In this document: positions 1-15,206 of the stretch, in pieces
How positions within the stretch are numbered: the stretch's first letter is position 1
Layout of the letters: each line of letters starts with the position of its first letter
Assembly (NCBI GenBank): GCA_016840035.1
Contig: JAEOTC010000173.1
Span: forward strand, 1-15,206
Reading direction: 5' to 3'
Source of the DNA: Candidatus Hodarchaeota archaeon
GTDB taxonomy: Archaea > Asgardarchaeota > Heimdallarchaeia > Hodarchaeales > Hodarchaeaceae
Length of the DNA stretch: 15,206 nt
Position numbers and translations under genes: made by a program
The notes under the pieces: model-generated
What the model was told of the DNA's origin: nothing
The model's database searches: none
The model's input: only the letters and a program-made list of their open reading frames with translations

Positions 1-1328
1 TCAGGGACTTGAGTCTCATCGCGCACAATTCTACCAATTATAAAGTCTATAGGCATGAAGAAGGCTCTTCCCACACCACTAATAGCAAGATCCTGTAATA
101 AAGGTCTCTCACCCGTGCTTTCAGAAATCACTTCTAAATTCAGGGCCATTTTCCCAAGGGTTTGCCCATAATTGTGTTCCATAAAGAGAGTATAAGCAAA
201 GAATAGGATAGCTGAAGGGCCAAGGCCAAATAGCCACTGAGATGGATCAGAAAGACCAAATGACCACCATCTCCAATTTTCTGTCATTAAGAAGAAAACT
301 CCGCTAATTGAGTTTGTAATAGCGCTTACTATGAAGTAATCAATTACAAAAGCCCAAAAACGAGGCCCCCACTCTGCTACTACAAGTTTTGTACCAGTAG
401 GTTCAAAGGAATCCAGTTTTGACGTCTTGGTGGCAGAATCAACGGTTTTTCTATCTTCAGAAAGAAGAATTTCCCCACATTGTGAACAGAACGTACTATC
501 TGCTTCACTAACAGATCCACAATTTGAACATTGAAGCTGATAATTAGGCGGTGATCTTTCTACTGGTGGTACACGAGTTGTCATAGCTCCTTGATAGTAA
601 CGGGTTCTAGGAACTCTTCGAGATTTTGATCGAAAACCGCTCCAAATAACGATCAATCCTAATAATGTCAATAATCCTCCAAAGACTAATAATACCCAGC
701 CAATCACATTGATAAATGGAAGTTGGGCACCTATACTGAACGTAAGATCTACTTCCGTCGGTAGAGCTGTAATTGAATTCATGATTATCAAAGAAAGAGC
801 ACCACTAGTAATATCCTCATAAGAGGGATCCCACCTAAATTCAGTTCCTGTTTCGGGTGCTACTAACCAAGTAATAGCATTTTGGTCTGGGAGTGCTAGC
901 GATGTGCCATTTTCAACGCGAGAAAACGTTATTGCAACTTCTTCGTTTTCTGATTCAGTCGGTAAACCAGAATAAAAGTTTAAATTTGTAACACGCAAAT
1001 AATCCATACTATTTAAGAAATCATCTGCTTCTGAATGTGTTGTTAATCCTAAGAAGACATCAGAATAACCTGCTCCAAACGCATTAATCTTAATCCTGAC
1101 GAAATCTGATGGGTCGATCCGAAAATCAACTTCAATGTCTTCAATTGGGATATCTAAACGTATTGCTGATACTCCCTCTTCTTGTTTATGAAAACTCTGG
1201 GACATGAAATAACCATCTTCATCGGTAAGAAAAGGTGGAACAATCAATACGCCTGTTCCGATTATAAAAATAGGGAATCCAATCATAACTATAAAGATTC
1301 CAGCTACAAGCTTTACTGTACTTGCCAT
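1..1328 (-). CDS. Membrane protein: N-terminal TM, extracytoplasmic domain, TM, C4 zinc ribbon and RDD-family domain (partial; 3' end runs off the window)
   Basis: Not in the ORF track because it has no stop in the window. Manual translation from ATG 1328 is open to base 1: MASTVKLVAGIFIVMIGFPIFIIGTGVLIVPP (TM); IGWVLLVFGGLLTLLGLIVIWSG (TM); CSNCGSVSEADSTFCSQCGE (zinc ribbon, ~530-471); AEWGPRFWAFVIDYFIV and YGQTLGKMALNLEVI (RDD signatures R-x-x-A-x-x-I-D and GQTLGK). Confidence 0.85.
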   Translation of the reverse strand, partial: MASTVKLVAGIFIVMIGFPIFIIGTGVLIVPPFLTDEDGYFMSQSFHKQEEGVSAIRLDIPIEDIEVDFRIDPSDFVRIKINAFGAGYSDVFLGLTTHSEADDFLNSMDYLRVTNLNFYSGLPTESENEEVAITFSRVENGTSLALPDQNAITWLVAPETGTEFRWDPSYEDITSGALSLIIMNSITALPTEVDLTFSIGAQLPFINVIGWVLLVFGGLLTLLGLIVIWSGFRSKSRRVPRTRYYQGAMTTRVPPVERSPPNYQLQCSNCGSVSEADSTFCSQCGEILLSEDRKTVDSATKTSKLDSFEPTGTKLVVAEWGPRFWAFVIDYFIVSAITNSISGVFFLMTENWRWWSFGLSDPSQWLFGLGPSAILFFAYTLFMEHNYGQTLGKMALNLEVISESTGERPLLQDLAISGVGRAFFMPIDFIIGRIVRDETQVP

Positions 1329-1405
1329 AATATCAATTCCATAGTTAAAACTACTTGTTTCAACCTCCGACAATCCCTAAATATATATTATGAGCTAACG
1401 GCAGT

Positions 1406-1717
1406 TTATGTGTCCAAATCCCGTGCCTTGTACTTTTTAAGGGTGTTTAATAACGCTTTTTCTACATCTATTTTGAAATAATTCGTCAAACAAAGCAAAG
1501 CAAACAATAGATCACCACTTTCTTCTTGAATCTCATCCTTAATGAAAGAGGAATCGGATGGTAAATTTTTTTCCCTTATTCCAGCAAATGTTTGTAATGC
1601 ACGTGATAATTCACCTAATTCTTCTGTTAGAGCCGAAAGAAGCCATTCGGGTTTCCAATAACCACCATGGTTATTAATGAAAGTATCAACTTCTGCCGCT
1701 AATTCTGCTAATTCCAT
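1406..1717 (-). CDS. MazG-like (YpjD-type) nucleotide pyrophosphohydrolase
   Basis: GGYW, LTEELGELSR and EESGDLLFALLCLTN give the ExxE...ExxD metal-binding motif of all-alpha NTP pyrophosphatases. C-terminal KYKARD and 103-aa length are typical of the YpjD group. Confidence 0.88.
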   Translation of the reverse strand: MELAELAAEVDTFINNHGGYWKPEWLLSALTEELGELSRALQTFAGIREKNLPSDSSFIKDEIQEESGDLLFALLCLTNYFKIDVEKALLNTLKKYKARDLDT

Positions 1718-1831
1718 AGTTAATTCCCGTAATAATCAAAAAATTACTTTAGCACATAATAAATTATTGAAAGAAAAACTAGTTCGAAGAGCATATAAAC
1801 GCCTTTTCTGTGACAACCATGAGGTTACAGA

Positions 1832-3208
1832 ATGTCCTATGTCGAAAAAGCGTTTTGGGATTATTTGAAGTCAACACTATTCGGAGGAGTGCGGATTCTC
1901 CTATCTAGACAGTTTATTTTATTTTCTGTCATACTCTTCGTAATATCTGTTTCTACAACTGGTTTGGTTGTTATGCAAGAACAAGCGTCTGAAATTATTA
2001 CACAGGATATAATTAAACTTGCCTTCAGTCTGGAAATCAGCCTTGCTATAGGTTTTATTCTTTCTGGTCTTGTTGCTAAAAGATTAAATTTCATCTCGCG
2101 ATTGATCTTAATGTTTATCATTGTTATCATTGTTTTTGTCTTATCTGTTCTCTCCACGGGAATTGCTTTTATTAGCGATTTTATGGAATACTTTAATGAT
2201 GTTTTTCCGCTTATTGCATTTTTCTGCTGGTCTTTCTTGATACCTGTGGCCTCGTTTGCCTTTGCGAAAGGACTTTTCTCAAATAAAGTGACTGGAAGTA
2301 TTCTGTTTTTAGGAAAACCGAAAACTGAAAGAAAATCAATATTCTCAGGACTTTTAACACTTATTGCAGTATTTTCACTTGTTGGAAATGGATTAATGAT
2401 TTATTCTGGAACAATGGATTCAAGAACAAGCTATATCATTTTAGGGATTCTAGCTATTGCTGTGTCTGTTCTCATAGTATTAATAGTTCAGGGGATTCTA
2501 TTTTCTGATGATATTTTTAATTCTGTACTGGGTTTATTCTTTGTCATGATATTACCGAATCAAATAATGATTGTGTTAACCTCCATTAGTGGGTCTGAGA
2601 ACATTGTTACAAGTTTTGATTTTCTTCTTGTAGCTTTTACTCTTCTTTATAGCGCACAGAATATATCACGTAGAATTAAAGTCAAGGGAGTTACGGTAGA
2701 TGAATCAGGACAGCTTAGTAACATCAAAAACGATGATCCGTTTAGAATAGGGCGTTTTGTAGGATTTGTGGGTGGAGAAGGGATAGTTCTCATCTACTTG
2801 GGGCTTGCACTGGGGTTTCATTTGATTCAATTACAGATTCTAAATGGAACTGCGGAAATTTATCAGGATTTATTTGCAGATCTAAGTTTTTCCGAGGCGT
2901 ATCATGATATTACTTCAATTTTCTCGTTTCTAATATTCGGTATAGTTACCTTGACATATTTCCTTCAACGAGGACGAGGATACTGGGAAGCAGACATTCT
3001 TAGACTTGATTTTTTGCCCCCCTATGATGATTTAAAGGATTATATGGAACGAATAAAAAGTGGTGAGATATCAAAGACTGACATTGCTCTAACCGTTGGT
3101 AAAAAAGTCGGAAAAGGTGCAGTTAGTGCGGGAAGTTCCGGAATATTTTCTGCTGCTAAGATGTTCAGGGATAAAATATTCAGAGATTCAGATAAGAAAG
3201 AAAAATGA
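1832..3208 (+). CDS. Uncharacterised polytopic membrane protein (~10 hydrophobic segments)
   Basis: 458-aa ORF with GAGGT RBS at 1821-1825, many long hydrophobic stretches and a charged C-terminal tail. No family motif recognised. Confidence 0.8.
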   Translation: MSYVEKAFWDYLKSTLFGGVRILLSRQFILFSVILFVISVSTTGLVVMQEQASEIITQDIIKLAFSLEISLAIGFILSGLVAKRLNFISRLILMFIIVIIVFVLSVLSTGIAFISDFMEYFNDVFPLIAFFCWSFLIPVASFAFAKGLFSNKVTGSILFLGKPKTERKSIFSGLLTLIAVFSLVGNGLMIYSGTMDSRTSYIILGILAIAVSVLIVLIVQGILFSDDIFNSVLGLFFVMILPNQIMIVLTSISGSENIVTSFDFLLVAFTLLYSAQNISRRIKVKGVTVDESGQLSNIKNDDPFRIGRFVGFVGGEGIVLIYLGLALGFHLIQLQILNGTAEIYQDLFADLSFSEAYHDITSIFSFLIFGIVTLTYFLQRGRGYWEADILRLDFLPPYDDLKDYMERIKSGEISKTDIALTVGKKVGKGAVSAGSSGIFSAAKMFRDKIFRDSDKKEK

Positions 3209-3222
3209 GGGGAGAATCCCCT
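3208..3222. terminator. Putative bidirectional terminator hairpin between convergent genes
   Basis: AGGGGA-GAA-TCCCCT spans the 12-bp gap between two convergent stops. T-rich tracts follow on both strands (AGTTTTTATTTT on +, CATTTTTCTTTCTT on -). Confidence 0.55.
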
Positions 3223-4054
3223 AGTTTTTATTTTCGAATTCAGATGTCGAATAAGTACTTGTACTACCCTTTGAAATGATATTGTGTTTATGAATGGATT
3301 CTAATGATGTAGTGATTGCCTTTATCTCTAGTTTTGACTCCTTAAACTTCTGTACTGCATTTATTAACAAATTTCTTGTGACATCTTCGACGAAAAGAGG
3401 ATTTTCATGCATACGATCCACTACCCACTGTTCATCTTCTTGTTTAAGTAAAGAAAAAGAGGGTGCTGAAAAACTCTCATCAAGAATTTTACTAATTATT
3501 TCCATATCAGGGATTTCTGAAGTCTTTCCTTTCAAAGTAAGTTCAGCGTATGCTCTCTGGATGTGGGTTCTATTTAATGGATTATTTACTTGGGCATGAG
3601 GGCATGCTGTGCTGCCAGAAGTGCCTAATGAGAGTTCGTGTATTATTGATCCGCTTTTCCATTTTGTAACAAGTCGTCCTTGATAATTCTCCATTGAATT
3701 TCGTTTTGAAACAGGAGTAAGTCTTGGAGTAAAAAATTCAAAGGTTAAAGTAATCATACCTCTCTCAAATGGATGTCGGGAATTTAATTCCTGAAGGACT
3801 TGAATAGACATCTCTTCTAAGGAGAAAAACGAGTCAGTTTTACTCGATAATATTTCTGAAATTGATTCAATAAATCTTGACATATGAGCTCCCTTTTTTG
3901 AGGGCGGTAGGTCAATTACAACCTTGATATTTGTCGTATATCGATAAATTTTAGTTCCTCTGGTGATAGATATTTGAGTTCGAAAATCTGTGATTCCTAC
4001 TTCATCCAAGGATAGTTGTACATCTGGAAACTGATCTTGTGTTTCTAAATTCAT
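3221..4054 (-). CDS. mptA: GTP cyclohydrolase, FolE2/MptA (GCHY-1, type IB/IV) family
   Basis: VGI, DLP..KKGAHMSRF, TACPHA, THIQR, LLKQEDE, NPLFVED and ESIHKHN are the family motifs in the expected order. GAGGT RBS at 4064-4068 (-). MptA versus FolE2 product specificity cannot be settled by eye. Confidence 0.9.
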   Translation of the reverse strand: MNLETQDQFPDVQLSLDEVGITDFRTQISITRGTKIYRYTTNIKVVIDLPPSKKGAHMSRFIESISEILSSKTDSFFSLEEMSIQVLQELNSRHPFERGMITLTFEFFTPRLTPVSKRNSMENYQGRLVTKWKSGSIIHELSLGTSGSTACPHAQVNNPLNRTHIQRAYAELTLKGKTSEIPDMEIISKILDESFSAPSFSLLKQEDEQWVVDRMHENPLFVEDVTRNLLINAVQKFKESKLEIKAITTSLESIHKHNIISKGSTSTYSTSEFENKN

Positions 4055-4234
4055 GAATAAACAACCTCAAATTCAAATGAGATATCAGAATAATATCTTT
4101 GGGAGTTAAAAGCTTCAATACTATTTTATTTTAACCCGTGTAATTTCAGAGAAAAAAACCCCTTAAATACTAGTTGTAGCAGAAAAAGGCTAATAAGCGA
4201 CTGCTTAAATGCGTATCGAAGGAGATACTTAACA

Positions 4235-5080
4235 ATGAAAATAATTGGAGTATTAGGCGCAGGAATAATGGGGAATGGAATAGCTCAAGCATCAGCAATA
4301 GCTGGATATGATGTAATTTTGTATGATATTGATCAGAAATTTATTGATCGTGGTTTAGGGGAAATAAAGAAGTCACTAACTCGAATGGTTAAGAAAGATA
4401 AGCTCTCCGAGAGTGATATCCCCGAGATCTTAGGAAGAATTACATCTTCACTTGACTTGAATGATTTTAAACCAAGTGACTTGATCATTGAAGCAATCCC
4501 CGAGAATATAGCACTGAAAAAAGAAACCTACAACAAACTGGATTCCATATGCTCTGCCAAATGTATTTTCGCATCCAATACTTCTGCAATTAGTATAACT
4601 GATTTAGCTTCGAAACTCCCAGAGAAACGCCAAAAAAGATTTATTGGCTTACATTTTTTTAACCCCGTTTCGATGATGAAGCTTGTAGAAGTAATTCGAG
4701 GTGAAAGGACCTCGGATAGTACGTGTGATGAATCTTTAGCTTATTGCAAGAAAATTGGGAAGGAAACTGTAATAATAAATGATTTACCAGGATTTGCGAC
4801 AACACGTCTTGTTTCAGCGGTTATTAATGAAGGTGTATATATGTTACAGGATGGGTTAGGATCACCGGAAGAAATTGATAAAGCTATCAAGCTCGGTCTT
4901 GCTCATCCAATGGGACCACTATTCTTGGCAGATTTGATTGGTTTAGATACTATTCTCCATATACTAGATTATCTGAAAGACGAATTAGGAGTAAAATTCC
5001 AAGCTGCACCTCTTTTAAGAAAAATGGTGCGAGCTGGAAAGCTCGGGCGTAAATCAGGAGAAGGATTCTATGAATATTAA
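4235..5080 (+). CDS. hbd: 3-hydroxybutyryl-CoA / 3-hydroxyacyl-CoA dehydrogenase
   Basis: Rossmann GAGIMG, EAIPE, ASNTS, catalytic GLHFFNPV...LVE, PGF, HPMGP...DLIGLD and C-terminal GKLGRKSGEGFY. AAGGAG RBS upstream. Confidence 0.95.
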   Translation: MKIIGVLGAGIMGNGIAQASAIAGYDVILYDIDQKFIDRGLGEIKKSLTRMVKKDKLSESDIPEILGRITSSLDLNDFKPSDLIIEAIPENIALKKETYNKLDSICSAKCIFASNTSAISITDLASKLPEKRQKRFIGLHFFNPVSMMKLVEVIRGERTSDSTCDESLAYCKKIGKETVIINDLPGFATTRLVSAVINEGVYMLQDGLGSPEEIDKAIKLGLAHPMGPLFLADLIGLDTILHILDYLKDELGVKFQAAPLLRKMVRAGKLGRKSGEGFYEY

Positions 5081-5211
5081 CCAGTAACTTACAGATTAGT
5101 TTCCCCCTCTCATATTTTCATAGTAAAATTTTTACTCTAGCAATTCAACAAATAGCCAAAACCATCACATTCTTTAAGGTGCTTCATTAAAGATAATGTA
5201 AGGGAATATTT

Positions 5212-6903
5212 ATGGAGTTTCCGAAAGTAATTAGTGTTTATTCACGAACTTCAAGTGTTGGAAAGCAAACCCTTGCTCTTAATATCTTCTTATCATATGC
5301 AAAGACTAATCCCGGAACAAGAATATTAATTGTTGACTTTTCTTTAACAGAAAAACTGCGATATAGTCTTTCAAAATATGGAAAGTCACATTTTAGTAGT
5401 CTCGAATTCCTGAGTGAAATTTCTGATGATATCTTAGTTAACGAATCTCTGCTCCTAGATGAGGAAGAAAATCAAGGATCTTTTGTCAGAGTACTTCCCT
5501 CTGCGGGGTGTCAACTCAATGAAAATGGGCTTCCAGCAAAAATTAAGCATCGGGTAAACTCCTTATTTTTTAAAGATTTGATAGACATATTAGTTTTTAT
5601 CATTCCTACATCCTTGGAACAGAATTCAATTACAATGGCGACCCTTCTCGAAAGCGAAATGGTTTGGTTTATATCTACAGATAAATTCCCCTCGATTAAC
5701 TTAACTAGAACTTCAATTCAAAACTTCTTCCATTTTCTCACCGTACCAACATTATTGATAGTTAATATGATTAATCCCCCTGTTATCTTAGAGAAGGTTG
5801 AAAGCTTCTTAAAAAGCTTAGAAAATAGAGTACGCGGGCCCATATTCTATGTTATACCATGGCTCCAAGATATTCATAGTTTTACAAATAAAGGAGTTTT
5901 TGGAATAGAAAACCCCTCCTCTGGAGTAAATACAATATTTTCTGATTTTGTACTGAAATTGAAAGATGCCGTCGAAATCAGAAATCTAGGATTGGTGAAA
6001 CCTCAATCTATTACTTCTCCGCAGGCCTTGTTTATGACCGATAGATATTCTGGTACAACGATGTACTATCATTTTTTCGGCAAAGCTCAAGATGAAATGA
6101 AGAACCCTGCTCTAATTACAGCCGCATTGAGTGGGATTGCCCATATGATATCCGAAACTGCAGGGAGACAAGGAGACCTTAGGGGTATAGATAATGGTAA
6201 CTCCTATATCGATTTTCAGTATGGAAAAAACATAATTGGAATTCTTTACAGCACGAAAGAAGATAATACACTTTCAAATTTATTGCTATCCTTTACAAAA
6301 CGTTTTGAAAAGGATTTTAAGGAAGAGTTGATTGATTTCTCAAATACTGGCTCTATTGGGGGTTTTGTCAAAGCTAAGTCGCTTATCGATTCAGTATTTG
6401 AGGATTGGATATTCGAGATCAATACTGTTAACTCACAGCTCCGTGAAAACATAATAAACTATCAAGAGAACACTCAACAATCGAAGGTTGATCCTGAGGA
6501 AACCTTTCAAAATTATGTGACAGAAAATATCTCAGACTCTACTATCCACGAATTACTCTACTATGAGTTTACTACATCACACAATCAAAGACACGAATTT
6601 CTGCTGAATTTGGGGATAAATCCGAGATTAAAAAAACTTAGTATTGAGGAAGAAACTGGAAGTTCTCTTTGTGCTTGTACAGAACCACCAAAATATGTAC
6701 AGATACAGGGATTTGATGCGTTAGGATTACTCGACCTTCCAGAGAAGCTTCGCCCGACTGCAAGAGCATTATTCGCATCAAAAACATTAACTCCAGAATC
6801 AGCGGCAAAAATCACCTTCCGAGACCAAAATACCGAGTTGGAAGTTCTTGAGGAGCTAACAAGACTTGGATATGTACGAAAAATAACTCCAAATATCGGT
6901 TGA
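5212..6903 (+). CDS. Multidomain protein: degenerate MinD/ParA-like domain (aa ~1-255), longin-like domain (aa ~270-397) and C-terminal winged HTH (aa ~506-558)
   Basis: KVISVYSRTSSVGKQTLALN, RILIVDFS, VLPS, LIVNMI and VIPW follow the MinD/ParA motif order. ALFMTDRYSGTTMYYHFF...PALITAALSGIAHMISE...LRGIDNG...IIGILYS...FTKRFEKDF has the bb-a-bbb-aa longin pattern. LLDLPEKLRPTARAL...LTPESAAKITFR...LEELTRLGYVRK is a wHTH. Confidence 0.75.
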   Translation: MEFPKVISVYSRTSSVGKQTLALNIFLSYAKTNPGTRILIVDFSLTEKLRYSLSKYGKSHFSSLEFLSEISDDILVNESLLLDEEENQGSFVRVLPSAGCQLNENGLPAKIKHRVNSLFFKDLIDILVFIIPTSLEQNSITMATLLESEMVWFISTDKFPSINLTRTSIQNFFHFLTVPTLLIVNMINPPVILEKVESFLKSLENRVRGPIFYVIPWLQDIHSFTNKGVFGIENPSSGVNTIFSDFVLKLKDAVEIRNLGLVKPQSITSPQALFMTDRYSGTTMYYHFFGKAQDEMKNPALITAALSGIAHMISETAGRQGDLRGIDNGNSYIDFQYGKNIIGILYSTKEDNTLSNLLLSFTKRFEKDFKEELIDFSNTGSIGGFVKAKSLIDSVFEDWIFEINTVNSQLRENIINYQENTQQSKVDPEETFQNYVTENISDSTIHELLYYEFTTSHNQRHEFLLNLGINPRLKKLSIEEETGSSLCACTEPPKYVQIQGFDALGLLDLPEKLRPTARALFASKTLTPESAAKITFRDQNTELEVLEELTRLGYVRKITPNIG

Positions 6904-7054
6904 AAGAAAAAAACACTAATCAAATGAAATTTCTCAAGTAATTTCCATATCGTCTTAGCATCAGATGATATATATGTGCTAGAAGAAAGAAGAGTCTAAA
7001 CTGATTTATAACAGTCATACTTTCTAAAACGTGTAAAACAAGGTGAAAAAAGAG

Positions 7055-7789
7055 TTGGCTAGACAACACACGGACTATGCTAGTGTCAAGGTCGAAGATA
7101 TGATTAAAAAACGTCGAGTTTCCCCTGAACAGGACTATGAGAAGATAATTAAGAATAAAAGTCTTGTTCAAGAAATTCTTGGAAGAGTTCGTGGCAGTGA
7201 AGTAAGTAAACCAGAGCTCGAATCGACAATTAAATGGCTTGAGAGAGTATCAAAGTACATCCCAATAGCAGCTGACAAGCAATTAGAAGAGATTGTAAAA
7301 ATCATGGTTTTGCTAAGTAAAGAAAGAGCGAAACTAAATGAACTCTACGATAAACCAGGTTTAGACTTAATGAAACGCGTTCGAGAAGGAATGATTCGTT
7401 ACATGGTTGTGTTAAGCGAGCTTAGAGCTGAAAGAAATGAGTATCTAGAGCATTGGTTCACTGATGAATATTGGATTAGTGAATGGAGTCGGGTACTGCT
7501 AGATTTAGCACCTGATAACAATATGATTAAGTATGGATTCGACGATATAAAAGCAAAAGACTTTTTATTTCTTTTAGAGCTAGAACTTGCCGCTGCTGAC
7601 GATGCTTCCAGAGTTGAAAAACCTATGATTCGGTTACAACCAATTGAAAATAAGGACTCATTTTTGATCATACCAACTGAAGTTGCAGCGGAAGATTATC
7701 GACTATATGTTGACCGAATATTTAAAGGGGAAACTACTTTCACACAATGGGTAGGGGATACCTGCATTACATTAAAAATACCTAAGTAG
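7055..7789 (+). CDS. Hypothetical soluble protein, mostly helical, immediately upstream of the Rab-like GTPase
   Basis: Long charged ORF with no recognised motif. Start moved from GTG 7043, which lies inside the AGGTGA RBS (7041-7046), to TTG 7055. A TATA-like TTTATAA lies near 7003-7009. Confidence 0.75.
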   Translation: MARQHTDYASVKVEDMIKKRRVSPEQDYEKIIKNKSLVQEILGRVRGSEVSKPELESTIKWLERVSKYIPIAADKQLEEIVKIMVLLSKERAKLNELYDKPGLDLMKRVREGMIRYMVVLSELRAERNEYLEHWFTDEYWISEWSRVLLDLAPDNNMIKYGFDDIKAKDFLFLLELELAAADDASRVEKPMIRLQPIENKDSFLIIPTEVAAEDYRLYVDRIFKGETTFTQWVGDTCITLKIPK

Positions 7790-7815
7790 AATTTGATCGG
7801 AAAAAGGTGAATTAT

Positions 7816-8355
7816 ATGAGTGAAGATATTCGTTTATGGAAAATTGTCTTAGTTGGCGATGGAGCTGTTGGAAAAACATCTCTACGTAAGAGATATTTGG
7901 GTTTAGGATTTGAAACGGACTATTTAAGTACAATGGGAGCTGATTTTGCCCTTTATGATACTTCTATTGATGAAACCCAGATTAGATGGCAAATCTGGGA
8001 CTTAGCAGGCCAACCCATGTTCAAAGATGTTGTACAAGCCTATTACACAAAAATTTTTGGTGGAGTTCTAGTCTACGATGTAACACGCCGTCAAACCTTT
8101 GATAATGTTGAAAAATGGCTAAAAGATATCTGGAACAATTCTGGACGCGATAGAAATGTTCCTGTTGTCCTTCTTGCAAACAAAGTAGACTTACGTGAAG
8201 AAGGTGCGGAGACTGTTTCCACAGATGAAGGTAAGAAGCTTGCTGAAAGCCTTGGAGTTCCATTCATTGAAACTAGTGCGAAATCTGGTGAAGGGGTTGA
8301 AGCCGCGTTCAAAAAACTCGGTAAAAACATCTTAGAATTCACAAAAACGTCTTAG
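7816..8355 (+). CDS. Rab-like small GTPase (Ras superfamily), 179 aa
   Basis: G1 GDGAVGKT, G2 ST(MGADF), G3 WDLAGQ, G4 NKVD and G5 ETSAK, plus RabF-like MGADF, RWQIW, YY and LVYDVT. AGGTGA RBS at 7805-7810 favours ATG 7816 over GTG 7807. Confidence 0.95.
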   Translation: MSEDIRLWKIVLVGDGAVGKTSLRKRYLGLGFETDYLSTMGADFALYDTSIDETQIRWQIWDLAGQPMFKDVVQAYYTKIFGGVLVYDVTRRQTFDNVEKWLKDIWNNSGRDRNVPVVLLANKVDLREEGAETVSTDEGKKLAESLGVPFIETSAKSGEGVEAAFKKLGKNILEFTKTS

Positions 8356-8404
8356 AATATGCTAGCTAGAAAAGCAAGGAACGTTCAAACACTCTAGACC
8401 AAAT

Positions 8405-8860
8405 TTATTCTTGGTCCTTAATTACTGGCCTGAAAACAACATTCCTAGATCGATCAGGTGTTTCTCCATAAGTTTTAAACAGTAGATTCCTTTTCTGAAG
8501 CTCGTTCAGGTATTGACTGGTCGTGCTTCTACTTCGACCGATCTTATCCGCTACTTCCTGGGTTGTTAAAGGTCGCGGAGCTTCAGCAAGGATGTCATAA
8601 GCCCTTTTTAGCATCTCATCTTTATCATCGAAATCAACCTGAGGGGTAGGTCTTGGCCCTTCTGGGTCAGAAACGGTTACGGTTGAGATATGGTCTTGGG
8701 GAGATCCCTCTAGAAGTGATAATCTTTGGTCAATATTACTTATTTGGCTACGTACTAAGCTTAGCGAAGTCATCAGTGGATCTAATTTCTCTCCCAACTT
8801 TTTCTCCAGAAGAAGACTGATCTCCTCAAGGATGTTTGACTGGTTTTCTGAAGAATTCAT
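8405..8860 (-). CDS. Coiled-coil plus winged helix-turn-helix protein (151 aa)
   Basis: Heptad-like LEEISLLLEKKL...VRSQISNIDQRLSLLE, a Pro/Thr/Asp linker, then PLTTQEVADKIGRSRSTTSQYLNELQKRNLL (HTH). AGGAG RBS at 8871-8875 (-) favours ATG 8860 over GTG 8938. Confidence 0.85.
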   Translation of the reverse strand: MNSSENQSNILEEISLLLEKKLGEKLDPLMTSLSLVRSQISNIDQRLSLLEGSPQDHISTVTVSDPEGPRPTPQVDFDDKDEMLKRAYDILAEAPRPLTTQEVADKIGRSRSTTSQYLNELQKRNLLFKTYGETPDRSRNVVFRPVIKDQE

Positions 8861-9293
8861 AAGGTTAGTTCTCCTAATGAAGCTCTGTTTCCATTCAAAT
8901 AAAAGCATTGAGCTTCCAGAACTGAGGAAATTATCCACAAATCGAACTTCTCTAGAGATTAGAACATCTTCATCGTTAAGTCACCTTCCAAGTTAAAAAA
9001 CTGTGTACACCGATATCAAATGATTATATACAGAAAAAAAATGATGATTACCGAATAATCGGCTCTTTTTAACTTCTGGTATGCATTAAAAGAGGAATTA
9101 AATGACCTGTAATCTTAACACTCCACAAAAGCAGTGTAAAGGTTACTTTCCACTAAAAATTTTACGATTCTTAGTGATTGATTGTTTGAGAATTTGAATG
9201 CACTTTTTTGACGAAAAATGCCGTAAAATTTAGGTAACAGATTGAAAGCAAAAGGTTTTAAGGAATGATTAGTAGATTCGATAGTGATTAACA

Positions 9294-9644
9294 ATGTCCC
9301 AAGGTGCAGGTTATTTATCACATCAAGCGCTTGAAAAAGTAATAGAATCGGTTGGAAAACATAAGGGAGTGTATGGAGCAGTATTGAGTGATACCGATGG
9401 ATTACCACTACAATCAAGTCTTCCTGGTGAAGATACGGAGAGAGTTTCCGCACATGTCGCCTCTCTTGTAGGAAAAGTAAAATATATTTCAAAAGAAATT
9501 TCACAAGAGATTGCACGTAGCATCCGACTTGAATTAGAAGTCGGTGACGTTGAGATAATACCTGATTACGATTCTGAAATAATTATTATAGCTCTAGTTA
9601 AGCGAGAGAGTAGTCAAATGACGCTCACCTCAAAGGATAAATAG
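9294..9644 (+). CDS. Roadblock/LC7 (MglB/LAMTOR2/DYNLRB fold) protein, paralogue 1
   Basis: LEKVIESVGKHKGVYGAVLSDTDGLPLQS...ERVSAHVASL...SIRLELEVGDVEIIP is the typical a-b-b-a-b-b-b roadblock pattern with the GV.G....DG.P motif. Confidence 0.92.
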   Translation: MSQGAGYLSHQALEKVIESVGKHKGVYGAVLSDTDGLPLQSSLPGEDTERVSAHVASLVGKVKYISKEISQEIARSIRLELEVGDVEIIPDYDSEIIIIALVKRESSQMTLTSKDK

Positions 9645-9661
9645 ATTTAGGTGAATGAAAA

Positions 9662-9979
9662 ATGTCTGGAGAAGAATATGTCATACCGTCGGTTCTACAA
9701 AATACAATAAAGAGATTAGCAGCAAGACGGGGTGTGCGTGGGATTCTAGTCTGCGATGAAGATGGATTGCCATTACAAAGTAATTTACCTCAATCAGATG
9801 CGGAACGTGTATCTGCTCACGTTGCTTCCCTTGTAAAGAAAGTACGAAGTGTCTCTGATGCGCTAAATCACGGCAAGCTCCAGTCTGTTTATGTTGAAAT
9901 GCCTCAATCTGAAATTATCATCACTCCTGATGAAGCTGCGGGATTTACTATCGTTGTTCTAAAAGATAGATCTTATTAG
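9662..9979 (+). CDS. Roadblock/LC7 protein, paralogue 2 (dynein light chain roadblock-like)
   Basis: LQNTIKRLAARRGVRGILVCDEDGLPLQS...EIIITPD..FTIVVL. AGGTGA RBS at 9649-9654; 17 bp after paralogue 1. Confidence 0.92.
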   Translation: MSGEEYVIPSVLQNTIKRLAARRGVRGILVCDEDGLPLQSNLPQSDAERVSAHVASLVKKVRSVSDALNHGKLQSVYVEMPQSEIIITPDEAAGFTIVVLKDRSY

Positions 9980-10212
9980 GTCTTGTTCTCATTAGCTACA
10001 TTTCTTCTTTATTATCAGTAGTTTTTTCGTAAATTTACTGATTTTTTCCCTTCTATAAACTCGGATGTCTGGTATAACTTTTTCTACATAAATTCTGGAT
10101 TATTCTATAAATTTCTTTAATGCAGATGCCGTTATGATTGCCATAAAACAATCTTTTTCTTAATGTGGTAAATATTATGACCACATCCTAGTAATTATGT
10201 TATTGTATGTAG

Positions 10213-11082
10213 ATGATTTTTATGGATCACAATGAGGAATCACAGGTAATAGGGTATTGTGGGGAATGTGGGAAAAAATTAATAGCAAACGCGACATTTT
10301 GTGCTTATTGTGGTGCTCCCATACCTAAAATTGGGGGTTTTATTCCTCCCCAAGCCAATATCCCTTATACAATAACCAATACGCGAGAAGTTAGTCCACC
10401 TCAACCTTTTTTATCAAATTTTCTCAACGTGATATCCACCCCTAAAGAAAAAATGCCTGGAATTGCCTCTTCTCCGAACTTATCCCAACCTCTACTAGTT
10501 AACATTATAATAGGCATCTTAGCATTCATTGCGATGTCAATATTAATATATAATTCTACTGTATCACTAGATGCTTCACTTCTTACCCTTATTCCCAGTG
10601 ACGAGTTGAGTGTGCAAGAATTTACAGATTTGTTTAAAATATCTATTCCATTTTCTGCCCCAATAGTTATTCTACTGAACTGGCTAATTTTAAGTTTGAT
10701 TCTATGGATATTACATGCATTTTTTGCATCAGATCTGAGTTCATATGATCGAGATTTTAAAACAATGGCTACAATCGTAGGTTGGGCTCAGATCCCTAAT
10801 ATATTCCATCAACTTGTTACGATTGTTGTTCATTATTTTGTTCTGTCTCCTGGAGGAGAAATCAATATAGGATCCTTTGGACAAATGGAAATCACCCCTC
10901 CTGCGGGAAGTTCAGATATTTTATCTAGAACTATCCTTTATGGATCTGGGATCCTATTCATCTTCTGGAGTCTCGTTTTAATATACTATGGGATAAAATC
11001 TTTAGGATCCGATAAAGCGAATCCAGTGACTATTTGTTCGATCTATGGCGTACTTAGAATTGTCCTATTTTTCTTTTTTTAA
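10213..11082 (+). CDS. Zinc-ribbon plus Yip1-family membrane protein
   Basis: N-terminal CGECG-x8-FCAYCG, then NVISTPKE (Yip1 N-terminal 'vl..P.e' helix), about 5 TM segments, FKTMATIVGWAQIP and WSLVLIYYGIK as in prokaryotic Yip1 proteins. The start may be ATG 10222. Confidence 0.8.
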   Translation: MIFMDHNEESQVIGYCGECGKKLIANATFCAYCGAPIPKIGGFIPPQANIPYTITNTREVSPPQPFLSNFLNVISTPKEKMPGIASSPNLSQPLLVNIIIGILAFIAMSILIYNSTVSLDASLLTLIPSDELSVQEFTDLFKISIPFSAPIVILLNWLILSLILWILHAFFASDLSSYDRDFKTMATIVGWAQIPNIFHQLVTIVVHYFVLSPGGEINIGSFGQMEITPPAGSSDILSRTILYGSGILFIFWSLVLIYYGIKSLGSDKANPVTICSIYGVLRIVLFFFF

Positions 11083-11801
11083 ATTAAAGTTCGTGGTTCA
11101 TAACGAACCCTAAGATGAAGGTATATCATGTCTCCGATTGGCTCAAAGCTTAAAATTTCTAAGAAAGGCGACTGATCAAAAGATGAAAACTCATTTGGGA
11201 AGGTAAAAAATGGCACACCATCTCCACCAAGCACAGGAGCAATTGCCACATGTATCTCATCAATCAATTTATCTGTTAGCATACTTCCATTTAGTTTACT
11301 TCCTCCTTCTAGTAAGATACTTTTTATCTCATAATCCTGGAACAGAACTGGCATTAAATGCCTTAAATTGACCAATGGTTCCTCTCCACAGATGATTACT
11401 TCACAACCTTCTTTCTCAAACTTATGGACTCTTTCTTTTGGACAATTTCTAGTAGTAGCGATGATTGTTTGAATTTCTGGACGAAATTTAATAACTCTAG
11501 AATCAAGAGGGATCTTACCACTAGAACTTACAACAATACGAATAGGATTTCGAATAGTTTGCCCAGGTTTAAAATATTCAGGTTTCACAGTTAATTTTGA
11601 ATCATCAGCTAGAATAGTACCACTTCCCACCATGATGGCGTCTTTACTAGCCCGAAGGTGATGTACTCTCTTCCAATCCTCAGTATTAGATAGCTTACTA
11701 TCTCCTGATATGGTAGTTATTTGGCCATCTAAGCTTATTGCAGCTGAGAGTATAACTTTCGGACGTTTGAGGGATTTTTTTTTAGTTATCATTGATATCA
11801 T
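11079..11801 (-). CDS. 2,5-diamino-6-(ribosylamino)-4(3H)-pyrimidinone 5'-phosphate reductase (stand-alone RibD C-terminal domain, archaeal ArfC/Rib7 type)
   Basis: RPKVILSAAISLDG, RVHHLRA..DAIMVGSGTILADDSKLTV, NPIRIVV, ILLEGGSKL and LIDEIHVAIAP; no deaminase domain. The start may be ATG 11792. Its stop overlaps the Yip1 stop (TTAA 11079-11082). Confidence 0.88.
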   Translation of the reverse strand: MISMITKKKSLKRPKVILSAAISLDGQITTISGDSKLSNTEDWKRVHHLRASKDAIMVGSGTILADDSKLTVKPEYFKPGQTIRNPIRIVVSSSGKIPLDSRVIKFRPEIQTIIATTRNCPKERVHKFEKEGCEVIICGEEPLVNLRHLMPVLFQDYEIKSILLEGGSKLNGSMLTDKLIDEIHVAIAPVLGGDGVPFFTFPNEFSSFDQSPFLEILSFEPIGDMIYLHLRVRYEPRTLI

Positions 11802-11873
11802 TCACTAATATAAGCTAAGTAGCAATAGGAATTAATTACACCTTTTTTAAAGTCTAACAGAAACACAGTTAGT

Positions 11874-11906
11874 AATATTGTAATATATTACAACAATATT
11901 TTTAAA
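11874..11906. promoter_or_regulatory. Palindromic operator candidate adjacent to a TATA box in a divergent promoter region
   Basis: Perfect 16-bp palindrome TTGTAATATATTACAA (11878-11893) with overlapping outer arms AATATTGT/ACAATATT (11874-11881, 11893-11900), then TTTAAA (11901-11906). A second TTTAAA at 11846-11851 could serve the reductase gene. Confidence 0.5.
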
Positions 11907-11926
11907 CTCGAATTTTGAAGATTAAA

Positions 11927-12065
11927 TTCCTTGAAATGACCGAATTATATTCGGATTCGATCAAGGAAAGTCTCCTGAAACGAAAGTTTCGGTGTGATAT
12001 AGCCCAGCTATATCGGAAAACAAGTCCAGTATTGGAAGTTTTCCCCTCAATCAAGAAATGGAGGT
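11927..12065 (+). ncRNA. Candidate structured cis-regulatory 5' leader RNA (five consecutive stem-loops)
   Basis: TTCCTTGA/TCAAGGAA enclosing CCGAAT/ATTCGG; CTGAAAC-GAAA-GTTTCGG; GATATAGC-CCA-GCTATATC; GGAAAAC/GTTTTCC enclosing TCCA/TGGA; CCTC/GAGG over the RBS. It begins ~21 nt downstream of a TATA box. Family unknown. Confidence 0.55.
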
Positions 12066-12071
12066 TAAAAT

Positions 12072-12284
12072 ATGACAATTGAAATTGAAGAAAATGTAGA
12101 TTTACACCATCAAGCCGAGATGGAATTAGTTTGCCCGTTCTGCGCAACTCATACTTTGTCATCTATCGTCAATCATAGTACCTTACGTCTCAAATGCAAC
12201 GAATGTGGTATGGATGCTTTTGTCACCCGTATTCCACGAGACAAGAAACTATCTGACTATATTTCAAGAAGACTGATTGCGTAA
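12072..12284 (+). CDS. Small C4 zinc-ribbon protein (70 aa)
   Basis: CPFC-x17-CNECG; GGAGGT RBS at 12060-12065; fills an otherwise empty gap. Confidence 0.8.
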   Translation: MTIEIEENVDLHHQAEMELVCPFCATHTLSSIVNHSTLRLKCNECGMDAFVTRIPRDKKLSDYISRRLIA

Positions 12285-12316
12285 ACAAAAGGAAGAAATT
12301 TTATCATTTCGGGAAG

Positions 12317-12379
12317 GAAAAATTAAGATCGCTTAGGAATTCACTCGGAGAAATTTTCTCCCCCTTTAGCGTCCTTAAT
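12317..12379 (-). terminator. Putative terminator / 3' stem-loop of tnaA
   Basis: On the minus strand ATTAAGGACGCT...AGCGATCTTAAT (with G-U pairs) encloses the inverted repeat GGAGAAA-T-TTTCTCC (12347-12361). It starts 5 nt after the stop and is followed by TTTTCCTTCC. Confidence 0.5.
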
Positions 12380-12384
12380 AACCA

Positions 12385-13773
12385 TTATTCGGTAATTGGT
12401 TCAAATCGTGCAGTAAAATGACGAAGGAAATCAGGACTGTAGGTCATCCTCAATCCCTTTATTTTCTCTCTTGACTTATATAATTCAATTATCGACTGAC
12501 AAATATAATCGAGATGCTCTCTAGAGTACACTCTTCTCGGTATAGCTAGTCTAACTAATTCTAATTCTGGATACACCCATTTTTCATCCTCGTTTTGATA
12601 AGCAAACATAACTGATCCGAGTTCAACACATCTAATTCCAAACATCTCATATAATGCGATTGTGAGAGCCCAACCTGGAAATTCAGATTGTGGAATATGG
12701 GGGAGGAATTTTCGGGCATCAAGATTGACCGAGTGACCTCCAACAGGTAATAAGATTGGAATATTGGCCTTTTCTAATTTATTTCCTAAATATTGAAGTT
12801 GTTGATAGCGATATTGTAAATAATCTTCAGAAAGTACTTCATTCAAACCTCTGGCCATGGTTTCGAGATCTCTCCCAGCCAAACCGCCATAAGTTGGAAA
12901 TCCTTCAGTAATAACCATTCTTTCTTTAATTCGATTGTAAAGATTAGCATTATTAAGAGCGATGAAGCCGCCAATATTCACCAAGCCGTCTTTTTTAGCA
13001 CTCATCATACACCCGTCAACATAAGAGAACATCTTTTGTGCTATTTGTATTGGGGTATAATCAGAGTATCCTTTCTCTCGTAATTTAATGAAATAAGCAT
13101 TTTCCGCAAAACGTGCAGCATCAAGAAAGAAAGGAATTTTGTACTTCCTCGCAATTTGAGAAACTGATTTAATGTTTTCCAATGAAACAGGTTGCCCTCC
13201 TCCAGTATTATTTGTTACCGTTAGAATTATTACAGCCACATTGGAATTTTGATTGAGGTATTCTTCTAAAGCATGTATATCCATGTTTCCCTTGAAATCA
13301 TGGTAAACAGAAGTATTAAATGCTTCTTGGACAACTAAATCATGTGCTTTCGCGCCTATAGATTCAATATTTGCACGCGTGGTATCAAAGAATTGGTTGG
13401 AGATTGCAACTTTCGTTTCATCCAAATTAAGGGCGAAGCAAACTAGATTTTCCGCACTTCTTCCTTGGTGAGTTGGAATAACATACTCGAAGCCAGTAAT
13501 TTCTTTGACAACTGATTCTAGATGAAAATAGTTTCTACATTGTGCATACGATTCGTCTCCTAGCATTAAGCCAGACCATTGATTGTCTGACATTGCTGAG
13601 GTACCTGAATCTGTAAGAAGATCGATATATACTTCTTCGGCTGGAATATTGAATATATTATACCCAGCTGCTTTCAAGTGTTTCTTTCGATCCATCAGCG
13701 TTGTTAATTTTATTGGTTCAACCATTTTTATTTTGAAAGGAGGCGGAGGAAGGGTGTCATTTGTGTTAGGCAT
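12385..13773 (-). CDS. tnaA: Tryptophanase (tryptophan indole-lyase, PLP-dependent)
   Basis: PFKIKMVEPI, IDLLTDSGT, THQGR, DAARFAENAYFIK and RLAIPRRVY. Tryptophanase-type residues FDTT, SAKKD (PLP Lys), FPTYGGL and LRHFTAR are present, rather than the tyrosine phenol-lyase forms FTTT, SGKKD, MPSYGGL and LRFFTAR. Confidence 0.92.
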   Translation of the reverse strand: MPNTNDTLPPPPFKIKMVEPIKLTTLMDRKKHLKAAGYNIFNIPAEEVYIDLLTDSGTSAMSDNQWSGLMLGDESYAQCRNYFHLESVVKEITGFEYVIPTHQGRSAENLVCFALNLDETKVAISNQFFDTTRANIESIGAKAHDLVVQEAFNTSVYHDFKGNMDIHALEEYLNQNSNVAVIILTVTNNTGGGQPVSLENIKSVSQIARKYKIPFFLDAARFAENAYFIKLREKGYSDYTPIQIAQKMFSYVDGCMMSAKKDGLVNIGGFIALNNANLYNRIKERMVITEGFPTYGGLAGRDLETMARGLNEVLSEDYLQYRYQQLQYLGNKLEKANIPILLPVGGHSVNLDARKFLPHIPQSEFPGWALTIALYEMFGIRCVELGSVMFAYQNEDEKWVYPELELVRLAIPRRVYSREHLDYICQSIIELYKSREKIKGLRMTYSPDFLRHFTARFEPITE

Positions 13774-13930
13774 GAAATAACTTTCCTATAGGATTAGTAT
13801 TAGAATTAAATGCTATAATTTTCTTTGTTTTTGGAATGACAAGCAGATTATACCGAGATATTATAAAAATAATTGTATACAAAACTAAAGGATTTATGAC
13901 TTTGTTAGGATTCAACCTCATTTGATATTT

Positions 13931-14563
13931 ATGCAAGAGTCTTTCCCCCAATTTATACTAGCGAGTAATTCTCCAGCACGAGCGCGTGTTCTAACTCAGA
14001 TAAACTTGGAGTACGAAGCAATTCCAAGTAAAATTGATGAATCAATGCAAATAGAAACTCCAGAGTCCTATGTAACTGAACTTTCAATTAAAAAAGCTCA
14101 GACTGTCGGTGAGAGGCTTAAATCGGAAAAAGAGAAGTACATAGTTTTAGGCTGTGACACAATTGTTATTGATCCTTTGAATCAAATTGTAGGGAAACCA
14201 AAGGATGAGAACCATGCGAAACAGATGCTCAAATTACTCTCAGGTAAATGCCACCGTGTACTCACAGGATGTGCTATCGTTGTTTATCCTTCGCAGGAAA
14301 GCTTTCAGACAATTATATCCACGGAAGTGGAATTTCGGTACTTAAGGACAGAAGAAATTGATTTTTATTTAGCTCAAAATGAATGGATGGGGAAAGCAGG
14401 AGCATATGCCATTCAAGGAATTGGAAGTTCGCTGATTAAAGAAATAAGAGGAGATTATTACAATGTCGTAGGTTTACCAATACACTGGGTATGGCAAACA
14501 CTACTGAATATTTACGGTGAAGTTTTTTTGGATACTGTGGGAAAAAAGTTTACTGAGAGTTAA
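13931..14563 (+). CDS. maf: Maf-family nucleoside triphosphate pyrophosphatase (YhdE-like)
   Basis: ILASNSPAR, IDE, KA, GCDTIV, GKP, LSGKCHRV, KAGAYAIQG and GDYYNVVGLP. ATG 13931 preferred to TTG 13922. Its stop overlaps the convergent gene (TTAA 14560-14563). Confidence 0.93.
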   Translation: MQESFPQFILASNSPARARVLTQINLEYEAIPSKIDESMQIETPESYVTELSIKKAQTVGERLKSEKEKYIVLGCDTIVIDPLNQIVGKPKDENHAKQMLKLLSGKCHRVLTGCAIVVYPSQESFQTIISTEVEFRYLRTEEIDFYLAQNEWMGKAGAYAIQGIGSSLIKEIRGDYYNVVGLPIHWVWQTLLNIYGEVFLDTVGKKFTES

Positions 14564-14829
14564 TTAACACTCTCGCGAACATGAAAGAGAGAGGTTCGCA
14601 TATCAGTAAAGTTGGCAACTTTTCGGACTAAACCGATATTAATTAGTTTTTTCAAAGCATTCCTAACCGTTCGGTCAGAATAAGTACATTTTTTTTCAAT
14701 ATCCCCTGAGGTAAGGGGTCCGTCGCGATTCAAAATTTCGAATATCTTTTTTGCACTTGTGGGAACCGCATAAGCATCTATGGGTAAACTTTCAGGTTTC
14801 ATTTCATCTTTTATTTCTTGAACTTGCAT
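14560..14829 (-). CDS. Small archaeal winged-HTH (MarR/ArsR-like) DNA-binding protein
   Basis: PTSAKKIFEILNRDGPLTSGDI...YSDRTVRNALKKLINIGLV...DMRTSLF matches the archaeal 'PPSAK...GPLT...RTVRYAL...DARQSLY' pattern. GTG 14844 lies in a GAGTGA RBS-like motif, so the start is probably TTG 14832 or ATG 14829. Confidence 0.85.
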   Translation of the reverse strand: MQVQEIKDEMKPESLPIDAYAVPTSAKKIFEILNRDGPLTSGDIEKKCTYSDRTVRNALKKLINIGLVRKVANFTDMRTSLFHVRESVN

Positions 14830-14889
14830 CAAGGTTTCTTTCACTCTTTTTTCAGTTTTTATTCAGATATGAGACGATTTCGATCTGTC

Positions 14890-14930
14890 GTTATTGTTGT
14901 CGTCTCTGGTGTTAATGTTGTTATTGTTGT
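14890..14930. repeat. Three direct copies of GTTAWTGTTGT upstream of the wHTH gene
   Basis: GTTATTGTTGT 14890-14900, GTTAATGTTGT 14911-14921 and GTTATTGTTGT 14920-14930. Confidence 0.55.
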
Positions 14931-15206
14931 TTATACAGTTAGCGTATGACTGGTGTAGTACATTTACGTAAAACTTTGAAAGGAAAGCCGAATGCAGAAT
15001 AAAAAAGACTGATCTTTCTTGAAAGTATAGAGAAAATGGAAGTGGAGTGGACCAAACGTCGAAACATTCACTTTTGATCGGCCGAACTCAATCGTGTTCA
15101 AGACCCCGGCCCTTCAAGCATAACTTCTCGGTCTTAGAGATGCTCTTTCCCAAGCCTATCCCGTTTTGACCTTGTTTTCTTATTCTTCTCTCCAGAAGAA
15201 TCTCCA

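Follow-up and report, generated by a model that had tools for sequence, protein, structure and literature searches.

A degenerate ParA/MinD fold joined to a longin domain in a conserved Hodarchaeales protein encoded near a Rab-like GTPase

We describe a 563-amino-acid protein encoded by Candidatus Hodarchaeota archaeon (GenBank assembly GCA_016840035.1, contig JAEOTC010000173.1, positions 1 to 15,206 of the forward strand; this whole stretch of 15,206 nucleotides is called the window below), in which a ParA/MinD-type domain with eroded catalytic motifs is followed by a longin domain, a helical segment with a probable zinc site, and a winged helix with a shortened wing. The protein is under strong purifying selection, and its gene is conserved upstream of a gene for a Rab-like small GTPase. 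We put at about even the chance that it is a four-part, non-canonical adaptor or regulator tied to this GTPase, with the longin domain serving as the GTPase platform. An earlier reading of the letters alone (the sequence-only reading) had proposed a fusion of MinD/ParA-like, longin, and winged helix-turn-helix (wHTH) domains, and structure prediction and fold search bear out all three. The gene and its parts are as follows.

5212-6903, forward strand: whole gene, an open reading frame (ORF) of 563 amino acids with pseudo-MinD, longin, helical/His2Cys2, and winged-helix parts
5212-5997, forward strand: ParA/MinD-fold domain with degenerate catalytic motifs, residues 1-262 (AlphaFold2 [AF2] model, Foldseek, and VIA)
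6019-6402, forward strand: longin domain, residues 270-397 (AF2 topology, VIA, and Foldseek)
6412-6711, forward strand: helical linker with H457, H461, C487, and C489 (codons within 6580-6678), a putative zinc site, residues 401-500
6712-6885, forward strand: wing-truncated winged helix, residues 501-558 (VIA match to TFE-alpha and profile matches)

Conservation and distribution

A word-indexed search found 65 homologues of the ORF at 45-85% identity, labeled, where a taxon is named, as Hodarchaeales, Heimdallarchaeota, or loosely 'Promethearchaeota', and both the start site and the length (about 560-570 amino acids) are kept among them. Pairwise ratios of nonsynonymous to synonymous substitution (dN/dS) are about 0.08 for the whole protein and 0.04-0.13 in every domain. 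The number of homologues and the low ratio in each domain argue that this is not a chance ORF in a window of about 35-40% G+C. The full-length gene is single-copy in the source genome and, in a survey of 301 Asgard genomes, was present in 18 of the 20 other genomes of the source GTDB genus and in one further genome of the same order; beyond these, the middle domain alone was matched. No Pfam or NCBIfam family matches the protein above its family cut-off. We regard the architecture as a new one built from known folds, with a narrow taxonomic range. Column counts given below refer to 50 sequences of this family.

Degenerate motifs in a maintained ParA/MinD-type domain

In its predicted structure, the N-terminal domain takes the three-layer P-loop fold of ParA and MinD, as the sequence-only reading had supposed. 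The AF2 model, built from the 50-sequence alignment, has a predicted local distance difference test score (pLDDT) of 72.7 and a predicted template modeling score (pTM) of 0.80. Foldseek matches it to ParA, MinD, Soj, FlhG, FleN, and NifH (E 1e-10, template modeling [TM] score 0.64-0.73), and VIA aligns 228 of 245 residues with Soj at Z 19.6 and a root-mean-square deviation (rmsd) of 3.1. Two landmarks that the earlier reading had listed as kept, IVNMI at residues 183-187 and VIPW at residues 214-217, are both present. Sequence comparison barely detects the domain: Pfam CbiA reaches E 0.025, below its cut-off, and searches of PDB sequences (phmmer and profile) give marginal P-loop matches (CapA/B kinase at E 0.014, MinD at E 1.2) along with spurious matches to acetylcholine receptors.

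MinD, ParA, Soj, and FlhG/FleN are deviant Walker A ATPases of the SIMIBI class (Pfam CbiA PF01656 and AAA_31 PF13614). To set the register of the catalytic motifs, we aligned the family profile by hhalign with P0213, a canonical MinD-type protein encoded next to a distant relative and carrying SYKGGTGKTS, DFD, and DTSPG (probability 56%, E 1.2e-4), and the fold match to ParA and MinD supports this register. It places three degenerate motifs in the domain.

5242-5271, forward strand: degenerate P-loop SRTSSVGKQT, residues 11-20 (family consensus SRTPSCGKKT; hhalign register)
5335-5343, forward strand: switch I remnant D42-F43-S44, canonically D-x-D, aligned to DFD of P0213
5599-5613, forward strand: Walker B/switch II remnant I130-I131-P132-T133-S134, canonically D-x-x-P-G, aligned to DTSPG of P0213

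The same altered motifs had been picked out in the translation by the earlier reading, and hhalign backs their register. T13 stands at the signature lysine, S14 and S15 at the two P-loop glycines, Q19 at the Mg-binding threonine, S44 at the second aspartate of switch I, and I130 at the Walker B aspartate. Unlike MinD and ParA, the protein therefore lacks all six of these residues, and of the deviant Walker A pattern xKGGxGK[ST] it keeps G17-K18 alone. Its likeness to them lies in the fold, shared across almost the entire domain, and in retained sequence elements: the Walker A Gly-Lys, the aspartate that comes first in switch I, and, at base-binding positions, NM and IP.

The replacements are themselves conserved. 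In the P-loop, S11, G17, and K18 are each found in 50 of 50 sequences, T20 in 49, R12 in 48, and T13 in 46; position 19, the Mg-binding threonine site, is Lys in 43, Gln in 6, and Arg in 1; and the two glycine sites are occupied by Pro or Ser and by Ser or Gly. In switch I, D42 is invariant (50/50) and S44 nearly so (48/50). At the Walker B/switch II site the counts are 47/50 for I130 and 50/50 for P132, and further along the domain N185 is invariant and P216 nearly so. Pairwise dN/dS of the N-terminal domain is 0.07-0.12, equal to that of the remaining domains. Because the substituted residues are conserved and selection on this domain matches that on the others, it is a maintained, re-purposed fold rather than a decaying one, and homologues share the degenerate motifs under purifying selection, a point that the sequence-only reading had put forward for checking.

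A longin domain from a large archaeal family

The AF2 model of residues 262-563 has a pLDDT of 79, and its secondary structure as assigned by DSSP (E9-16, E22-27, H38-55, E64-66, E71-76, E80-86, H91-107, and H109-118) gives the longin topology b-b-a-b-b-b-a-a, without the N-terminal helix of roadblock proteins. In an all-against-representatives search, the top 30 VIA matches of the middle domain are all longins, at Z 10.0-12.1: VAMP7 at 12.1; TRAPP core subunits and Sec22 at 11.5-11.7 (TRAPPC 11.7, Sec22 11.7); AP sigma/mu, SRX, Mon1-Ccz1, BLOC-3, and CPLANE at 10-11.8; and a Lokiarchaeota longin at 10.0. Roadblock and MglB proteins rank below these (Z at most 9.8). Foldseek returns AP sigma, TRAPP, Mon1-Ccz1, and GATOR1 for the same region. 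On the model, residues 270-397 form a true longin domain, in line with the original assignment.

None of the Pfam longin-type profiles (Longin, Sybindin, Sedlin, SRX, and Clat_adaptor_s) matches the protein or its 50 relatives at E<=0.1, a divergence compatible with the fold, and PDB sequence searches (phmmer and profile) with residues 262-563 return nothing. With HMMER, 345 matches came from a full set of 1.84 billion representative proteins. Nearly all are to the longin domain alone, which either stands by itself, at about 120 amino acids, or lies C-terminal to CBS domains, MFS transporters, multi-pass membrane regions, or KaiC-type ATPases. On this range of architectures, the domain belongs to a large archaeal longin-type family that has no Pfam model. 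It resembles eukaryotic and Asgard longins (VAMP7, Sec22, Ykt6, TRAPPC1/4, AP sigma/mu, Mon1-Ccz1, SRX, and Lokiarchaeota 8YQG) in topology and in matching them at Z 10-12 over 115-131 residues, and differs from them in escaping the Pfam profiles and in its membership of the CBS/MFS/KaiC-fused archaeal family.

A His2Cys2 segment and a truncated winged helix

The helical linker that follows (residues 401-500, pLDDT 83-91) carries an HxxxH...CxC motif whose four residues, H457, H461, C487, and C489, are invariant. The motif also persists in the distant relatives P0066, P0067, P0068, and P0071, and its persistence at about 27% identity suggests that it is probably a structural zinc site.

Residues 501-563 align by VIA with the TFE-alpha winged helix (Z 7.9 and 7.8, rmsd 2.4, 63 residues), and the domain profile matches stand-alone archaeal wHTH proteins of 116-125 amino acids, one of which has TrmB/MarR Pfam hits. 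Of the winged-helix elements, the protein has the helices and the first wing strand, and its chain ends ahead of the second wing strand found in the stand-alone relatives P0153 and P0211. A DNA-contacting recognition helix would be expected to be basic or polar. Here it is acidic, with a median net charge of -2 and an isoelectric point (pI) of 4.8, whereas it is basic in the stand-alone relatives, and E542 is invariant where these carry Arg or Lys; the domain as a whole is about neutral. Of the earlier proposal of a wHTH that might touch DNA, the fold stands and the link to DNA is weak: given the missing strand and the acidic helix with Glu in place of Arg or Lys, DNA binding is unlikely, and the winged helix is more likely a protein binder.

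A conserved Rab-like GTPase downstream

Two genes follow in the window.

7043-7789, forward strand: 248-amino-acid protein that falls into no known family (Pfam and NCBIfam give no match), the optional middle gene of a trio
7807-8355, forward strand: Rab-like small GTPase (Pfam Ras, 1.8e-47), the conserved downstream neighbor

The closest solved relatives of the GTPase are a Thorarchaeota Rab, Ypt6, Rab11, and Rab1. The 563-amino-acid protein's gene is separated by 139 bp from the 248-amino-acid protein's gene, which is separated by 17 bp from the GTPase gene. In a tblastn census of 18 related loci, 16 of them informative, the Rab-like GTPase lies downstream in 15, including every Hodarchaeales locus with enough sequence, and the 248-amino-acid protein's gene stands between the two in 7 of these 15. 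One of the 15 is L006, the locus around P0068 (about 27% identical to our protein), which has the same trio, with a middle protein of 196 amino acids (28% identical) and a GTPase 55% identical, among flanking genes (proteasome, SBDS, and exosome) unrelated to those of the window. At the level of genes, the link to a Rab-like GTPase that the sequence-only reading had suspected is therefore upheld. Predictions of a complex between residues 262-563 and the GTPase scored 0.45, 0.39, and 0.48, against 0.55 for a control with chain 1 replaced; they gave no verdict, and we make no use of them.

The 248-amino-acid protein is from a multi-copy Hodarchaeales family: each of the two genomes inspected encodes two or more paralogues, and lone paralogues occur elsewhere. 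The paralogues could also have had GTPase neighbors, and the three that were checked had none.

Relatives paired with canonical MinD ATPases

Pseudo-MinD-longin proteins make up a wider group, of which our protein represents one branch. The sequence-only reading had covered neither this group nor the His2Cys2 motif nor the archaeal longin family. Four members of the pseudo-MinD-longin group, P0067, P0448, P0175, and P0094, are each encoded directly 3' of a canonical MinD-type ATPase, and a 414-amino-acid paralogue in the source genome brings to five the loci with this order, with gaps of 0-20 bp. P0067 and P0448 have the full architecture (570-580 amino acids), and P0175 and P0094, at about 425 amino acids, have the MinD and longin parts only. 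In the source genome the pair lies on contig C68 (locus L025), where a 275-amino-acid MinD (1486-2313; motifs NSYKGGTGKT, DTGPG, and CYC) is followed after 2 bp by the 414-amino-acid protein (2316-3560), whose P-loop is reduced to E-K-T. The family profile aligns colinearly with this paralogue over both domains (hhalign probability 91%, E 1e-6, 373 columns). Our protein thus shares with the pseudo-MinD-longins of about 415-430 amino acids (the 414-amino-acid paralogue, P0175, and P0094) a colinear two-domain order and a degenerate P-loop, whereas these lack the His2Cys2 segment and the winged helix and sit in a MinD operon rather than beside a Rab-like GTPase. The earlier arrangement may have been one with an active MinD alongside, which would make the Rab-linked subfamily, with its zinc site and winged helix, a derived branch.

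The P-loop is more eroded in the MinD-linked relatives than in the 563-amino-acid protein. Its Gly-Lys is lost among distant members of the group, being G-R in P0067, missing in P0094 and P0145, and E-K in the 414-amino-acid paralogue, which argues that other members use the pseudo-MinD fold with no P-loop. P0071 (356 amino acids) looked like a stand-alone longin, zinc-site, and winged-helix protein; we dropped it as such, since its 90% cluster includes the 576-amino-acid, full-length P0448 and it is probably truncated.

The partner MinD subfamily has the motifs HSYKGGTGKT, DFDFxGPS, DTGPG, and C-x-C, the last lying near the C-terminus and invariant in the partner MinDs (P0213 in L005, L023:4155-5000, L024:256-1062, L031:4192-5001, and L025:1486-2313), whose Walker motifs are intact; the C-x-C might be a metal or cluster site. 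Two further MinD-type paralogues, of 249 and 255 amino acids with HSYKGGTGKT and CSC, occur on contigs C177 (L029:1486-2784, reverse strand) and C253 (L030:1492-2805, reverse strand). Each is preceded by a protein of 177-180 amino acids with a ribbon-helix-helix (RHH)-like N-terminus and a wHTH-like C-terminus, an arrangement resembling a ParA-plus-adaptor partition pair, and the MinD genes adjoin genes for Thr-rich or large secreted or anchored proteins. Considered as partners in trans for our protein, these two MinDs make no clear case: they are paired with the RHH/winged-helix-like protein and with no pseudo-MinD.

Comparison with known systems

In the signal recognition particle (SRP) receptor, the alpha subunit (SR-alpha) combines an SRX longin with a SIMIBI-class NG GTPase and is bound to the Arf-like SR-beta. 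Our protein likewise has a longin and a SIMIBI-class P-loop domain in one chain and a small Ras-superfamily GTPase as partner, here a genomic one, and SRX is among the VIA matches of the longin domain (Z 8.8-11.0). Unlike in the receptor, the P-loop domain comes first, is degenerate, and matches the ParA/MinD type, not the SRP54/FtsY-type NG domain that would be expected after an SRX longin, and the GTPase is Rab-like, not Arf-like. The likeness is one of analogy, not of membership.

Foldseek also aligns residues 262-563 along GATOR1 chains (320-345 columns, E 2e-4 to 8e-3). We rejected an overall architecture like that of NPRL2 and NPRL3 of GATOR1/SEACIT (longin plus C-terminal domain) as too weak a match, with TM scores of 0.15-0.22 and a VIA rmsd of 18 for the long alignment, and nothing points to a catalytic arginine at the right position. 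NPRL2-like longin fusions have been described in Asgard archaea (bioRxiv 10.1101/2020.10.19.343400), and in the literature library that we searched, no account of a MinD/ParA-longin fusion from these organisms turned up.

Discussion

With fold identities, motif states, selection, and gene linkage as the observed basis, we infer the interactions and activities of the adaptor or regulator proposed at the outset. Its pseudo-MinD domain, with a conserved remnant of a nucleotide pocket, would be unable to run the canonical ATP-sandwich hydrolysis cycle and could instead act as a dimerization or localization module, through self-association or by pairing with an active MinD-type paralogue, and possibly still gated by nucleotide. 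The longin domain would offer the Rab-like GTPase a platform, whether as guanine nucleotide exchange factor, GTPase-activating protein (GAP), or effector, a role suggested by the longin and roadblock dimers that are established small-GTPase platforms elsewhere (TRAPP, Mon1-Ccz1, MglB, and SRX-SR-beta; PMC10933270). The helical segment would be stapled by its probable zinc site, and the truncated, non-basic winged helix would bind protein rather than DNA.

Several observations weigh against this proposal. Of the five AF2 models of the N-terminal domain, a single one was confident. Co-transcription of the gene with the downstream pair is uncertain, since a spacer of some 140 bp that contains a TATA-like element lies ahead of that pair; the spacer shows no clear run of T. 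One orthologue, P0064 (45% identity, L003), has no GTPase neighbor, and the linkage inside Hodarchaeales reflects shared ancestry, leaving L006 as the sole independent lineage. No canonical MinD gene adjoins the Rab-linked subfamily in the loci examined. Finally, a GP motif directly preceding strand b2 marks the GAP-type longins FLCN, SMCR8, and NPRL2 (PMC12290439), and it is missing here, the b1-b2 loop having instead an invariant S280-G281, then x-T/S-M, and no proline; we therefore set the GAP-type class aside, and the same absence separates the protein from NPRL2 and NPRL3. In GAP-type longins a catalytic arginine finger lies next to the GP motif; here the a1-b3 loop has a nearly invariant arginine, R319, whose equivalence to that finger would be conjectural.

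The N-terminal domain could alternatively be a still-working nucleotide switch of altered chemistry, which would bind ATP or ADP, use Lys or Gln at position 19 in place of the Mg-binding threonine, and hydrolyze slowly or not at all. The protein would in that case be gated by nucleotide instead of being a dead scaffold; the catalytically dead scaffold or nucleotide sensor of the sequence-only reading is likewise a proposal. Nucleotide binding may indeed survive, given the full or near-full conservation of G17-K18, T20, D42, N185, and P216, the last two being likely base contacts; the domain is under selection as strong as that on the others, and BcsQ, an ATP-binding relative of ParA/MinD fold, is among its VIA matches. 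Against a working switch, the first P-loop glycine, the signature lysine, and the Walker B aspartate are all gone, and P0067, P0094, P0145, and the 414-amino-acid paralogue have lost even the Gly-Lys, and we regard such a switch as unlikely. A different possibility is that the protein works with MinD-type ATPases to position envelope or surface machinery, after the manner of the 414-amino-acid paralogue cassette, its adjacency to the Rab-like gene being mostly inherited gene order with no direct link in function. That five related genes from distant lineages follow a canonical MinD, two of them (P0067 and P0448) with the full architecture, speaks for it, as do the P0064 locus and the dispensability of the 248-amino-acid middle gene with its lone paralogues. 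Yet the Rab-linked subfamily has no adjoining MinD gene, and the trio recurs in L006 among unrelated flanks at about 27% identity, which makes inertia alone hard to credit; this possibility, too, we hold to be improbable.

Still less probable, in our view, is a transcription regulator of nearby genes, with a DNA-binding winged helix and with sensing or oligomerization left to the MinD and longin parts. The profile kinship with stand-alone archaeal wHTH proteins that have TrmB/MarR hits and the match to TFE-alpha would fit such a role, and the lack of the second wing strand, the neutral charge of the domain, and a recognition helix that is acidic where the stand-alone relatives are basic would not. 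The adaptor proposal can also be extended to a coupling device, in which the longin domain would engage the Rab-like GTPase while the hydrolysis-dead MinD pairs with an active MinD or with itself, placing signaling at a cell site. We think this extension doubtful, at somewhat below the likelihood of a nucleotide switch and above that of a regulator, and the earlier suggestion that the protein could link nucleoid position to Rab signaling remains speculation.

Asgard archaea are rich in small GTPases of the Rab-, Arf-, and Rag-like kinds and in longin or roadblock proteins. In the present case, a particular longin protein and a particular Rab-like GTPase are linked in two distant lineages, a concrete pair for testing. 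The conserved, catalytically eroded ParA/MinD fold is also a clean case of a pseudo-enzyme that strong selection maintains in a prokaryote. Should the link to an active MinD hold, a bacterial and archaeal positioning system would be connected to eukaryote-like GTPase signaling; a coupling device of the kind just outlined would be a functional parallel to the pair of SR-alpha (SIMIBI plus longin) and SR-beta (small GTPase) and would inform the origin of longin-based GTPase regulators before eukaryotes.

Other genes in the window

Past the GTPase, the window has a divergently oriented TrmB/MarR-like wHTH gene (8405-8938, reverse strand), tandem Roadblock/LC7 genes (9294-9644 and 9662-9979, forward strand), with one orthologue set weakly LAMTOR5-like, and a gene for a zinc-ribbon and Yip1 membrane protein (10213-11082, forward strand). 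Together with the Rab-like GTPase, the two roadblock proteins and the Yip1 protein identify the contig as Asgard (Hodarchaeales). The order of the roadblock pair, Yip1, and wHTH regulator is kept in the Hodarchaeales loci L001 and L002 and not in L006. Upstream, a 458-amino-acid ORF with no Pfam match (1832-3208, forward strand) is syntenic with genes for proteins of 450-451 amino acids beside folE2 (GCHY-1) in L001 and L002.

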